A stretch of DNA of 63,790 bases, counting the filler, from Stramenopiles sp. TOSAG23-2 (lineage: Eukaryota): NCBI GenBank assembly GCA_900128395.1. It is 5 parts of 5 records of this genome, joined end to end, with 100 filler letters (N's around TTAATTAATTAA, not from the genome) between each part and the next. Parts side by side here need not be neighbours in the genome. Positions count along the whole stretch, not along the records: positions 29,381 to 58,657 come from LT649392.1; 4 more parts are not named here. One strand, given 5' to 3'. How positions within the stretch are numbered: position 1 is the first letter of the stretch; every line of letters begins with the position of its first letter. The translations under genes were made by a program, and so were the position numbers. Below are positions 29,281 through 45,408 of the stretch, piece after piece. Below the pieces are notes generated by a model. The model ran no database searches, was not told where the DNA came from, and saw only the letters and a list, made by a program, of their open reading frames with translations.

Positions 29281-29380
29281 NNNNNNNNNNNNNNNNNNNN
29301 NNNNNNNNNNNNNNNNNNNNNNNNTTAATTAATTAANNNNNNNNNNNNNNNNNNNNNNNNNNNNNNNNNNNNNNNNNNNN
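29281..29380. other. Artificial contig-joining spacer
   Basis: N44-TTAATTAATTAA-N44 (stops in all six frames). Confidence 0.99.
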
Positions 29381-29960
29381 TAATAAGCTTGACTCTGTTG
29401 CACAGTATTAACTTGTGTGTCTACATAAATGGTATCATCGGGATCAGGTGGTTTCGCGTCAGATATTAAAATATCATTTGCGGATGACTCAATGACGTCT
29501 GGTGTGGCCGCTTCATCAGACAAAATATTATAGGCGATTTCAATATTAATGCCAAGTGATGACTTGCCAGTGGTGGTGTTTTGATTAATGTCCGGAGCAT
29601 CAGAACGGCGATTACAATATATAATATTTATTTATTATATAAAAATGGTGGTATGTATGCATACAATATAGATAGATTGATAATTAATAATAATTGTAGA
29701 TTTTTGGATCTAAAAATAGATAATTATTGATGATCTACTCGATCTTAATGCTAATCGCATTGTAGAAGATGGAGTACGAGTTTAGCTGAGTTTATAAATA
29801 GTAACTATAAAGTAAACTATTGTTATCCAATACATAGCGGCGAAATGCCGCTATAACTCTCAATGTATTCAAATAAATGGCGTATATAGAAATTTGTATA
29901 AACGATATTACCATTTTGAAGCTGCAGGTGTTTGAATGAGCAATGCACTACAATTTATGC

Positions 29961-31049
29961 TCAATCGCCTTGTATCATATTCCAAGCCAAAGGTTCCCCC
30001 ATTTCAATATCCCTAGTAGCCGTAAGGCCAACAATCTCTTCCATATGACGCGAATGCAAGCCATTACCTGGTCTAATAGACCTAACATTTATATTTTCAA
30101 GAAAATTTTCACCTTTCTTCATGTCCTTGACAACAAATATCGATCGTCGAAACATTCTAACTTCACCACCGACACCCCCATAATGCACACTACCAAGGCT
30201 CTTCTCAATAGTGCGCACTTCCTCGACCATCTGCTTAAATTCATGCGGTTCAAGGGAAAACGTTGCATCTGGACCACCATCTTTTTCGCGACTTAAAATA
30301 AAATGTTTTTCGATAATTCTACCACCTAAGGCTACAGATGCAATAGGCACACAAGTTGTCAATGTGTGGTCAGATAAACCAACAACGGTATTGAAAGTAG
30401 ACGCTAAATTACGGATGGTATTCAAATGGGCATCCTCCGGTCTAGCGGGATAAGCACTAGTGCACTTCAAAATAGCAAGTTCTTTACAACCATTTGACTT
30501 TAATGTTCTCACAGCTTCTTCGATTTCCCCTATTGTTGCCATTCCTGTTGACATTATAACAGGTTTCCCTGTCTTGGCAACTTTTTTAAGTAAAGGAATG
30601 TCTACGCATTCCATTGACGCAACTTTTAAGATTGGTGTATCCAGTTGTTCAAGAAAATCAACAGCCGTATGATCAAAGGGCGACGAGAAGAAATCGATAT
30701 TTAGGCTATGTGCCAATGCTTGTAACTTGGGGAACCATTCCCAAGGTGTATGAGCGCCTTCAAACAATTTCCATAACGTTTGTGTTCCCCACTGGGTTTT
30801 TACCCCGTCGTGGCCTAATACAAAATGTGGCTTATCACAGTTTAAAGTGATAGTGTCACCAGTGTAAGTTTGCAATTTAATAGCATCACAACCAGTAGCA
30901 GCCGCTGCACGAACTATAGCTTCTGCTCTTTCGTATGATCCTAAGTGATTACACGACATTTCCGCAATTATATAGGTTGGAAAACCAACGCCTATTGTTC
31001 TTTTTCCATATATTTTGCTGTTAATAGTAAATGTTGGTTGGGTTGACAT
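29961..31049 (-). CDS. pseI: Pseudaminic acid synthase (NeuB family, PseI-like) with C-terminal SAF domain
   Basis: IIAEMSCNH.G, KLQTYTGDTITL, AHTPWEW, FSSPFD, STGMAT, LKCTSAYPA, GLSDHT, IIEKHF.LSR..GGPD.FSLEP, FRRS.FVVKD.KKGE, NVRSIRPG.GL. Confidence 0.88.
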   Translation of the reverse strand: MSTQPTFTINSKIYGKRTIGVGFPTYIIAEMSCNHLGSYERAEAIVRAAAATGCDAIKLQTYTGDTITLNCDKPHFVLGHDGVKTQWGTQTLWKLFEGAHTPWEWFPKLQALAHSLNIDFFSSPFDHTAVDFLEQLDTPILKVASMECVDIPLLKKVAKTGKPVIMSTGMATIGEIEEAVRTLKSNGCKELAILKCTSAYPARPEDAHLNTIRNLASTFNTVVGLSDHTLTTCVPIASVALGGRIIEKHFILSREKDGGPDATFSLEPHEFKQMVEEVRTIEKSLGSVHYGGVGGEVRMFRRSIFVVKDMKKGENFLENINVRSIRPGNGLHSRHMEEIVGLTATRDIEMGEPLAWNMIQGD

Positions 31050-31370
31050 AATTTATACGAGTTGCTGCTGTAGTTGTAGGAGAAAGGTTGCTGTTGTGAT
31101 TTTTAAGTAGGAGCAGTCGTTTATGTGTATCAAGGCACACATAATCCAGCATCGCACCATCTTGGTGTTCGGTAGTTATATACAATGCACAAAGTATTAC
31201 ACCACACGGAAATAGGCGAAGTCGAAGTTTATAAATATATAAATTCTGGTATAAAAACATTATCTCTTTTTTTATATACTTATAAGTACTGTAGACTATC
31301 GCGCAGTTATAAAATTTAATAATTTTTAAAAAAGTATGGACCCTTTTGATTTTTTCTCCTTGCGTAAGAA

Positions 31371-31460
31371 TAGGTAAATATTTCTAGTATACAACTACCC
31401 CGTACTTAGACCTAGATTACAACCAATATTTGAGGGGAAAAATACATAATTAAAAAATAT
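31371..31460. repeat. Dispersed ~90-bp repeat, copy 2
   Basis: Close match to 13851-13945 (first 28 bp identical). Confidence 0.85.
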
Positions 31461-31902
31461 AAAAGAAAGATATAATGGGAAAATGTAAAAACTTGACATT
31501 TTGTAATTTATGTGTGATAGATTACTTAAAAAGATGTACAACTTCACCACTGTGCCATTTCACTTTCTGTTGATCAAAAAAAATATTCTTTATATGTATA
31601 AAATCACCATCGTGCCCTTTATAAAAATGCTCAATTCCCAGAGTGCGTTTATAACATCTTCTTGGATTAAAAATATAAATGTTACCAAGTTTTCCAAAAT
31701 TCATGATTTTTTGGGAGATCTAGGAATTATAATGCACGAGGTTTGATAGTAAAATATGTGTATTTTGTACTTTTTAGTATACTAAATATTTATTTGACAA
31801 CTGGAAAGTCTCTCTCAGAAAAATCGGGTCATATATGATTTAAATATTAAACTTAAGATTTTAACCATCAATTAAATATATCATATGATATCATAATATC
31901 AT

Positions 31903-31987
31903 ATATATTTAAAATTACACATCCTGATGCTGCGTAATTACATTAATCAGCGTATCGCAACTATTAAATAATATAATATATTACTCG
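31903..31987. repeat. 85-bp exact repeat, copy 1 (copy 2 at 45324-45408)
   Basis: ATATATTTAAAATTACACATCCTGATGCTGCGTAATTACATTAATCAGCGTATCGCAACTATTAAATAATATAATATATTACTCG identical at both sites. Confidence 0.92.
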
Positions 31988-31992
31988 TATGT

Positions 31993-32922
31993 TTAAGAAT
32001 CATTACTACCCTTATCCACAATTTTCTTTATACTCCAGCGGCGATGAAAATACCATATTTTTGAATTTTCTAGCTTGATTGGAGGAAGATCTAATTCTGG
32101 GTCACGTTTCAAGATATGCTCTATAGTTTCCATGTTCCAACCACGTGCTTTTGTTTCCACTTCAACCACACACACTTCCTTTGATGGTAACATCGGGATT
32201 TCAATTATAATCTTCTTTCTTCTCATCCTGTATGATCCTTTATGTACATTTCGATTTTGTAAATTGAATTTTCTTTCAAATTGTTCCGGTGGAGATGGAC
32301 TACAACAATAAAGTACTTCGCCATTATTATTAAAATATAAATAACGATAGTATCTACACCACAATACTTGACCAGCAGGGACTTCATCCCACATCGAAGG
32401 CGCTTGTCTTCTACGAACATATTTGTATTCTTGGCAGTAATATCCATTCAATTTTGCATATGGGCGTTGCATGAAAACACTTCTCCAAGAATTATGCGAA
32501 GACGGCAATATTTCTGGAAGATAATATTGCGGCGGTTTGAAAATAATTTTACATACAAACTTCCAGAAAAAATCATTGTCTTTGTGTTCAATAATTCGTT
32601 GCAGACTTTTGGACGTATACATCAATCTCCCAGCCATATCCACCGGCAACAATTTAACAATGATTAAAAACAAACCAACTTCGGCTAAACAAAAATTAAT
32701 GAATAAATTATTCTCTTCATTACTATTATTAACAAGATGACTTACAATATTAGCATTAATATTATCATCTTCCGTTGCATATGATGTATTGTTCTTATTA
32801 GCATTGCTATTATCATTATTATTATTATTATTATTATTACCAGTAGCAATAGCAGCAGCAGCAGCAGCAGTGGTCGCAGCAGTGGTCGCGGCAGTGGTCG
32901 CGGCAGTAGTAATGCTTGCCAT
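31993..32922 (-). CDS. FBXO9: F-box protein 9-like
   Basis: Degenerate F-box followed by SWR.VF.QRP..KLNG.Y.....YVR and YYRYL.F...G.V, characteristic of FBXO9/Hrt3. Start placed at MASITT. Confidence 0.75.
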   Translation of the reverse strand: MASITTAATTAATTAATTAAAAAAIATGNNNNNNNNDNSNANKNNTSYATEDDNINANIVSHLVNNSNEENNLFINFCLAEVGLFLIIVKLLPVDMAGRLMYTSKSLQRIIEHKDNDFFWKFVCKIIFKPPQYYLPEILPSSHNSWRSVFMQRPYAKLNGYYCQEYKYVRRRQAPSMWDEVPAGQVLWCRYYRYLYFNNNGEVLYCCSPSPPEQFERKFNLQNRNVHKGSYRMRRKKIIIEIPMLPSKEVCVVEVETKARGWNMETIEHILKRDPELDLPPIKLENSKIWYFHRRWSIKKIVDKGSNDS

Positions 32923-33169
32923 TGTTTGATTGCAGTATTCCTCTTTCTCTCTCTCTCTCTTCTCAGTACATTTCACATGCTTACCTTTTCTCCTATTGTT
33001 TTTGTAATATTTTATTATTGAAATAATAAAAATCAGATGCATGTACCAGGTAGCTCATATAATAATAATAATAAGTAGAAGTATCCTATAGATAATATAA
33101 AAGAAGTTGTTCGAATTGGACGAAGAAGAATGCCAGGTGGAATGCCAGGAATGCCGGAAGCCGGAAGTA

Positions 33170-33448
33170 CAGAAGGAAAAATTTCTGAAAAAATCCGTCA
33201 TACTTTTTTTAAAATATATTAAGTATATATATTTGTAGACTAATAGAATAATCGTCCTAACAAATAAAGCAGGGATACTAGTATACAAATATATATACTT
33301 AATATTTTTAAAAAAGTATGACAGTATGACAGTATGATGACAGTATGACGGATTTCAGAATTTTTTATAGGAACCCTATAGAATACAAATATATATACTT
33401 AATATATTTTAAAAAAAGTATGACGGATTCCAGAAATTTTTCCTTATG
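33170..33448. mobile_element. Putative MITE with ~65-bp terminal inverted repeats flanked by TA
   Basis: Left TA|CAGAAGGAAAAATTTCTG...TCCGTCATACTTTTTTTAAAATATATTAAGTATATATATTTGTA is nearly the reverse complement of 33384-33448 ending CCTTATG|TA; an extra internal TIR copy lies at ~33284-33365. Confidence 0.7.
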
Positions 33449-44915: not shown

Positions 44916-45323
44916 TATTATTATTATGATTTATAAATATAATATTTATATATATATATACTATTACTTCTACGACATAAACAAACTATATTTTTTATCC
45001 TTTTAATATATTGTTGTTGTTATACCTACTGATAAATATTAACAGAATGTTTCGTATTATCTTTTTTTTGCAGTTGTTGTGCTCTTTGCCTTTCTTGTTT
45101 TGGATATATGTACATATTTCATTCATCTCTCCTTGTATTTCATGTGTATTAATTGTTGTTTTTTCTTCCGTTGTTGTTGTTCGATGGCGGCGATATGATA
45201 GGTAATAAGATAGGGAAACTATACTATCACAACGTGTTAAGTATACTTTTATTGCAAAGATATATCATTTGACCGCCGAGAAGAAAATTGAGGCACAGAA
45301 TAAGAAAACAGTAAATTCATATC

Positions 45324-45408
45324 ATATATTTAAAATTACACATCCTGATGCTGCGTAATTACATTAATCAGCGTATCGCAACTATTAAATAATATAATAT
45401 ATTACTCG
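45324..45408. repeat. 85-bp exact repeat, copy 2
   Basis: Identical to 31903-31987; abuts the 0.84-kb duplication. Confidence 0.92.

Follow-up and report, generated by a model that had tools for sequence, protein, structure and literature searches.

Described nonulosonic acid pathways and the MAST-4 gene set

In Helicobacter and Campylobacter, CMP-pseudaminic acid (CMP-Pse) is made from UDP-GlcNAc by the successive action of PseB, PseC, PseH and PseG, followed by condensation with PEP by PseI and CMP activation. The genes described here from a MAST-4 stramenopile resemble that system (PseB, C, H, G, I, F) in that PseB, PseC and PseI pass curated models; candidate PseG-like and PseH-like sequences, both below cut-off, are present too. 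They differ in several features, including: (i) an apparently nuclear location, spread across six contigs, (ii) an SpsF-type enzyme in place of PseF, (iii) fusion of PseC to an intact class-III aminotransferase and of the cytidylyltransferase to a lysine-less copy, (iv) a PseG frame that ends in BolA, and (v) a GT29 enzyme as the likely transferase.

The Sps pathway to Leg in B. subtilis (SpsM, C, D, G, E, F), in which SpsF is the Leg-activating step according to the available text of PMC7439481, shares the UDP-linked route and SpsF-type activation; unlike it, the MAST-4 synthase is nearer PseI (260 bits) than SpsE (180 bits), and the MAST-4 dehydratase passes the PseB model. Among eukaryotes, the NANS/Kdn synthase plus CMAS route of animals and Prymnesium (Kdn is reported in this alga in the available portion of PMC6200933) likewise combines a NeuB-family synthase, CMP activation and GT29, whereas the MAST-4 synthase falls in the PseI clade by models and PDB rank (NANS being in no tree) and would use a 6-deoxy diamino precursor. 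Petit et al. 2018 (PMC5811610) list single PseS hits, as sequence hits alone, in assemblies of Hydra, Nematostella, Bankia and Condylostoma. These too are PseI-clade sequences from eukaryote assemblies; unlike the present set, each is an isolated gene with ties to a different bacterium or symbiont, with no pathway claimed in the available text, and five motifs of the MAST-4-clade PseI gave 0 matches in the supplement file of that paper.

There is a further likeness to pse clusters on giant-virus contigs (IMG/VR; L130, L128 and L218), which form the sister group for PseI, PseC and PseB and in some cases carry SpsF-aminotransferase fusions; they differ in that their genes are clustered, that PseG is fused to PseH or PseH to PseI, and that one of them has a reductase. 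According to the available text of PMC8157484, Pse and Leg are exclusive to prokaryotes, and a mass-spectrometric survey found none in several algae. Neither a eukaryotic nor a giant-virus Pse pathway turned up in the literature searched (mostly open-access), and nor did the giant-virus pse clusters themselves. What is new here, as read from the genes, would be the occurrence of a known pathway among eukaryotes, which are said to lack Pse: the PseI ORF probably supplies the synthase for a CMP-pseudaminic-acid-type pathway that is nuclear, complete and dispersed in MAST-4, and it is likewise probable that the product is of the Pse type, plain or modified.

The synthase gene and its surroundings

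MAST-4 is a common and abundant marine bacterivorous protist. The host is a MAST-4 stramenopile: the single 18S found in the assembly contains the exact MAST-4 probe site (probe sequence as listed in the available part of PMC4234645), and EukProt proteins labelled Stramenopile-MAST_4 fall in one cluster with a relative of the PseC fusion. The window, by which we mean the whole stretch of 63,790 nucleotides analysed, consists of contigs chained with N spacers; the PseI ORF lies on contig G000:C768 (29,277 bp, starting at window position 29381), 581 bp from its left end. Features of this region are as follows.

29281..29380, no strand: artificial spacer between contigs C767 and C768; C768 begins at 29381
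29381..29616, no strand: host repeat, stopped by the contig end; 93% to C663, 95% to C2569
29613..29861, no strand: host repeat family with a short hairpin at its end; copies on C6106 and C2286
29961..31049, minus strand: PseI-type nonulosonic acid synthase, 362 aa (NeuB and SAF, TIGR03586)
31317..31369, no strand: short repeat of the host; resembles the arms of the 33192-33429 element at about 77%
31370..31854 (end approximate), no strand: dispersed repeat of the host, about 485 bp long; full-length copies on further contigs are 85-89% identical
31896..31987, no strand: 92-bp repeat, 98% to window 45319-45408
31993..33054, minus strand: eukaryotic neighbour gene, FBO_C domain, FBXO9-like (domain match)

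An earlier note on this DNA had described an intact, intronless NeuB-family ORF with five motifs typical of PseI (e.g. AHTPWEW, GGPD.FSLEP, FRRS.FVVKD, NVRSIRPG.GL), and this stands: translation of the minus strand at 29961..31049 gives an unbroken, stop-free frame of 362 aa, with NeuB and SAF domains (Pfam) and all five motifs. Its assignment to the PseI clade was likewise upheld, the NCBIfam PseI model TIGR03586 scoring 440.2 bits (cut-off 340.25) and the NeuB_NnaB model 299.2 bits (below its cut-off of 399.65). The best of eight PDB matches was the pseudaminic acid synthase 8h2c (260 bits), with SpsE (180 bits) and meningococcal NeuB (155 bits) lower. In a 77-row tree the ORF fell within a 72-row PseI side (99 SH-aLRT) against five NeuB-type outgroups. 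Together, the models, PDB rank and tree position argue for the PseI clade rather than NANS, no NANS sequence being among the rows of any PseI tree. Residues H228, E247 and H249 align with H215, E234 and H236 of 1xuu (meningococcal NeuB), and S226, D261 and R326 with its S213, D247 and R314, which we take to be the metal and catalytic positions. No other NeuB-family match occurs in the assembly (32.8 Mb, 9,146 contigs).

As the earlier note had it, the ORF shares its 29-kb contig with genes resembling FBXO9, G-beta and PECR: by Pfam, C768 also encodes a protein with an FBO_C domain, a pair of G-beta proteins and an SDR split in two. The two G-beta paralogues are adjacent and divergently oriented (window 36030-39543). 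The repeats that the note had placed at 31318-31460 are real; they prove larger than described (a short repeat at 31317-31369 and a dispersed one at 31370-~31854) and are ordinary host repeats. A 301-bp upstream query gave at least 46 assembly matches, self included, with 40 of 63 candidates scored, and the query 29381-31369 gave 32, confined to about 29381-29868 and 31317-31369. Host repeats thus enclose the gene on each side, leaving about 1.45 kb of unique DNA between them. At window 33192-33429 lies a MITE-like element whose inverted arms, 51 nt each, are 96% complementary. Repeats and eukaryotic genes alike indicate, indirectly, that the PseI ORF sits in nuclear host DNA.

One copy of the 29613-29861 repeat adjoins a GT29 gene on C6106 (97% over 140 bp), and two copies on C2286 lie near a GDP-mannose dehydratase and a GNAT; these genes have similarly raised GC3. 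This hints at a variable compartment of glycan genes, although the repeat common to these three surroundings also adjoins unrelated genes. C2286 (L279) encodes a GDP-mannose 4,6-dehydratase, a carrier protein and a GNAT (GC3 0.31-0.34), the last of which resembles accessory GNATs of nonulosonic acid loci.

The codon usage of PseI is slightly outside the host range. GC3 was 0.32, compared with 0.12-0.29 for 22 other window ORFs, and CAI was 0.58, compared with 0.61-0.83 for 21 host ORFs; on the same host scale, 79 of 80 bacterial PseI genes scored 0.56 or less. Since all 23 long window ORFs examined are single open frames, the lack of introns is uninformative on origin. Nineteen marine sequencing runs contain 0.05-0.21 of the query words, of which the repeats alone make up about 14%; for the seven RNA runs among them the share was 0.05-0.12. 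These shares are no sign of the gene's presence or expression.

Partner genes of the predicted pathway

Partner genes were sought by profile searches of all contigs of the same genome, using NCBIfam curated cut-offs. The search for PseB, PseC, PseH, PseG and PseF yielded PseB and PseC above cut-off, PseG-like and PseH-like sequences below it, and an SpsF-type enzyme instead of PseF. PseB, on C801, scored 457 (cut-off 407.75) and was the only one of five PseB matches above threshold, the four weak matches being other family members. PseC, on C636, scored 440 (cut-off 423.5) and was the only one of six above threshold; those on C1039, C8722, C7474, C699 and C620 were set aside as other family members. 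PseB, PseC and PseI pass Pse-specific models and miss the Leg/Neu ones. The C636 frame spans 874 aa and joins the PseC domain to a class-III aminotransferase half (PRK06209, 490 versus 486) that keeps its PLP lysine, and the fusion is conserved in six clusters at 61-100%.

The PseG-like frame on C1918 scored 109 bits (cut-off 153.55), retains the GxGH motif, and matched the solved UDP-sugar hydrolase 3hbm weakly (E 0.002). Along this contig (L015 1462-2988), the PseG-like frame is followed by a low-complexity stretch and a BolA domain, as a fusion or as two genes. The PseH model TIGR03585 gave four weak matches in the assembly, a GNAT on C1880 reaching 28 bits (cut-off 93). On a profile trained with 56 PseH domains from pse loci, however, this GNAT scored 113 bits, compared with 77-205 for 28 held-out members, 105 for the annotated B. 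cereus PseH and 21-37 for three other host GNATs. It matched 76 ORFs in pse loci, compared with two for each of two control GNATs, and had no PDB match at E 0.01.

Only two CTP_transf_3 matches occur in the assembly, a KdsB-like one on C1806 and an SpsF-type one on C1476; neither is a PseF (TIGR03584) or a CMAS-type gene. The SpsF-type cytidylyltransferase (L025 1648-3804) is conserved in relatives and is joined in one frame to a fold of the class-III aminotransferase type in which the PLP lysine is missing, as it also is in the relatives P0302 and P0303; this fold may tether the cytidylyltransferase to the live copy on PseC. The KdsB-like CMP-Kdo synthetase (L013 1375-2229) adjoins PAN2, and CMP-Kdo could be an alternative GT29 donor. 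Seven GT29 matches were found on five contigs, of which C8254 is host-like and C3505 and C6106 are intermediate; C7208 and C8808 (GC 0.54 and 0.50) were set aside as likely foreign. On C3505 (L257 1-1263; also L258), tandem GT29 domains in one frame adjoin a DUF4116 repeat protein; the N-terminus may lie on C6106.

Each of the six genes (PseI, PseB, PseC, PseG-like, PseH-like and SpsF-type) lies on a separate contig, with eukaryotic genes around it. Neighbours were PDZ-PA, SprT and TPX2 for PseB; RPC25, PI31 and DnaJ-ankyrin for PseC; a kinase and ankyrin for the PseG-like gene; and DRC7 for the C1880 GNAT, while ORFs adjoining the SpsF-type gene gave a beta-helix match only. CAI of PseB, PseC, the SpsF-type and the PseG-like gene was 0.68-0.82 (host 0.61-0.83). 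In 46 GTDB loci of at least 20 kb around the nearest bacterial PseI, PseB was present in 41, PseC in 40, an SpsF-type transferase in 40 and a class-III aminotransferase in 11, and the protist set therefore mirrors that operon type. Across 35 prokaryote and virus loci, the class-III aminotransferase was accompanied by SpsF in 32 and by a pse-locus-type aldo-keto reductase (AKR) in 11. A direct search of the assembly did not find that reductase, and the 20 of 35 host AKR loci that were scored reached at most 61, compared with 175-409 for the pse-locus type. Two further long frames were observed in the assembly, one of 1,419 aa with kinase, ADP-ribosyltransferase-like and ankyrin domains (L278 841-5097, C3596) and one NRPS-like, with condensation, adenylation and carrier domains (L281 1-6603, C1317).

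From the genes, families, contexts and trees observed, we infer the reactions, product, transferase and surface role as follows: (i) PseB would convert UDP-GlcNAc to a 4-keto-6-deoxy-L-sugar, (ii) the PseC domain of the fusion would aminate C4, (iii) the PseH-like GNAT would acetylate the amino sugar, (iv) the PseG-like hydrolase would remove UDP, (v) PseI would condense the sugar with PEP at its two-histidine metal site, (vi) the SpsF-type cytidylyltransferase would form the CMP-sugar, and (vii) a GT29 enzyme would most likely transfer it onto surface glycans. A further amino group may come from the class-III aminotransferase half of the PseC fusion, in which case the product is possibly a derivative rather than plain Pse5Ac7Ac.

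Relatives, alternative readings and significance

Among the best 120 of 8,000 PseI relatives, the top was a cluster at 77-78%, followed by sequences on contigs of transcript size and an AT-rich group, at 58-65%, with bacteria at 57-60%. A FastTree of 290 PseI rows recovered a clade (0.996) with 45 members, 16 of them eukaryote-type and 29 unplaced, and two motifs occurred in 45/45 of these and 0/245 others, the clade being defined on the same data. The term eukaryote-type is partly inferred, the direct labels being the PseC MAST-4 and Pfiesteria EukProt records and the insert of clade member L070 (96 nt, GC-AG, with stops, as expected of a retained intron). In IQ-TREE analyses (77 rows, quick, LG+C20; 37 rows, bootstrap run), the eukaryote-type clade had 95.5/99 support, its union with the unplaced AT-rich group 98.7/100, and the union of both with giant-virus genes 99.9/99 (values for 37 rows; the groupings were the same in 77). 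The last join had almost no support (0.137) in the 290-row FastTree. AT-richness common to the viral and unplaced groups could help join them, but the L030, L034 and L070 contigs, at 48-58% GC, run counter to a grouping by AT-richness purely. Midpoint-rooted FastTrees gave a eukaryote-type clade at 0.999 and a join to the virus clade at 0.988 for PseC (74 rows), and 0.985 and 0.926 for PseB (90 rows). Bacteria lie outside the eukaryote-type and giant-virus groups in all three trees, and the same pattern for PseI, PseB and PseC points to an old shared pathway rather than a recent one-gene transfer. Our view, drawn from these trees, is that the Pse pathway is of bacterial ancestry, appears old in protists and is also carried by giant viruses.

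Genes on the contigs bear out the viral label of L130/L112 (major capsid), L128/L110 (P4B core) and L218 (C48 protease, YqaJ). For L113 and L219 we follow the IMG/VR assignment, whereas L086 and L108 are taken as viral by inference. L131 also carries a giant-virus label but falls with a Nitrospirota gene, and it was kept out of the virus group. In the giant-virus loci, pseI, C, G and H adjoin a major capsid gene or core protein. The clusters (L130 4544-14480, L128 1934-11005, L218 6346-11843; also L113 and L219) comprise PseC, PseG-PseH and PseI, with an SpsF-aminotransferase and a reductase added in L128 and PseB in L218; in L130 the cluster is 1.9 kb from the major capsid gene. None of the 29 AT-rich PseI members appeared in five viral-contig scans (P0011, P0005, clade alignment, P0266 and motif pattern), cluster look-ups yielded no organism for them, an Atlas search returned bacterial PseI clusters only and no members of this group, and a phage collection gave three matches, all distant; that the group comes from giant viruses is a guess. 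One of its members, P0286, is a 760-aa DUF218-(unknown)-PseI fusion. Pfiesteria and P0164 carry a PseF-PseC fusion (P0164 above both cut-offs), so that protists differ in the activating enzyme. The fusions P0152 and P0164, from Pfiesteria and a relative, have a basic K/R-rich C-terminal tail, and the PseI homologues P0004 and P0066 also end in one.

In 90% clusters, PseI has one member, compared with 60 for PseB and 44 for the PseC-aminotransferase; the latter two have graded relatives, PseI a single sister cluster. Seven of the ten members of that sister cluster are truncated, with the same frameshift in three records and the same stop in two, possibly through assembly errors, and assembly breaks at repeats, or near-identical records missing from the cluster data, could likewise explain the rarity of PseI. 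Given this rarity, the deviant codon usage and the truncated sister alleles, PseI is possibly an accessory gene, and its presence or absence may switch the end product on. One could go further and suppose that in most MAST-4 cells the main role of PseB, PseC and PseH is to produce a UDP-diamino-6-deoxy sugar or to supply a different synthase, with this PseI a rare copy, recently moved or decaying, that does little. The cluster sizes, the repeated truncations, the repeats on both sides and the codon usage all suit this reading, which we nevertheless judge unlikely: the ORF is intact with every aligned active-site residue present, its 77% identity to the sister cluster equals that of PseB among MAST-4-like clusters (74-80%), as vertical descent predicts, and a nonulosonic acid is the one product that would explain PseG and the conserved cytidylyltransferase. 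A weightier possibility, credible although not the one we favour, is that the same genes make another nonulosonic acid (with an extra amino group, another acyl group, or a Leg-type isomer), so that the end product alone differs. The aminotransferase, with its model score, intact PLP lysine, fusion in six clusters and association with SpsF in 32/35 loci, speaks for it, as does the making of Leg by B. subtilis with SpsC/D/G/E/F homologues (available text of PMC7439481); the Pse-specific model scores of PseB, PseC and PseI and the failure to find a matching reductase, by direct search or among the 20 of 35 AKR loci scored, speak against it, and no paper on an extra aminotransferase step was found in the literature searched.

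Two further explanations concern the origin of the gene. The earlier note had proposed a horizontally acquired route; bacterial-type nonulosonic acid genes in a nuclear setting are indeed present, but the PseI, PseB and PseC trees do not fit a recent lone bacterial transfer. We hold a recent single transfer from prey or a symbiont into the host lineage to be very unlikely, even though prokaryotes make up the overwhelming bulk of the family, its bacterial members come as close as 57-60% and the GC3 of PseI is a little high: among the GTDB matches listed, no bacterial genome sequence falls inside the clade in any tree, the two clade motifs are absent outside it (for a clade set on the same data, with 29 of its 45 members unplaced), and three genes repeat the eukaryote and virus pattern. 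Contamination or an amplification chimera, joining a foreign ORF to a host contig, is likewise very unlikely; the ORF does lie close to a contig end (581 bp) and is flanked by repeats, and some of the 9,146 contigs of the assembly look foreign, yet the repeats on both sides are those of the host, five partner genes are on other host contigs, and the nearest relative is a eukaryote-type sister sequence rather than a bacterial one.

With a nuclear Pse-type pathway as the preferred reading, a broader and more doubtful proposal can be put forward tentatively: that MAST-4, dinoflagellates and others make a Pse-type sugar from nuclear genes passed between protists and giant viruses, that GT29 displays it at the surface, that the synthase is an on/off gene, polymorphic in wild populations, that sets a glycan type under virus or predator selection, and that the MAST-4 sugar is an undescribed amino derivative. 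Relatives of the pathway occur in a culturable dinoflagellate (Pfiesteria) and in giant viruses. If true, the pathway would break the prokaryote-only rule for Pse/Leg-type nonulosonic acids, would make Pse weaker as a bacterial marker in marine samples, and would offer both a new donor sugar for protist GT29 enzymes and a concrete surface-sugar pathway common to hosts and their viruses.
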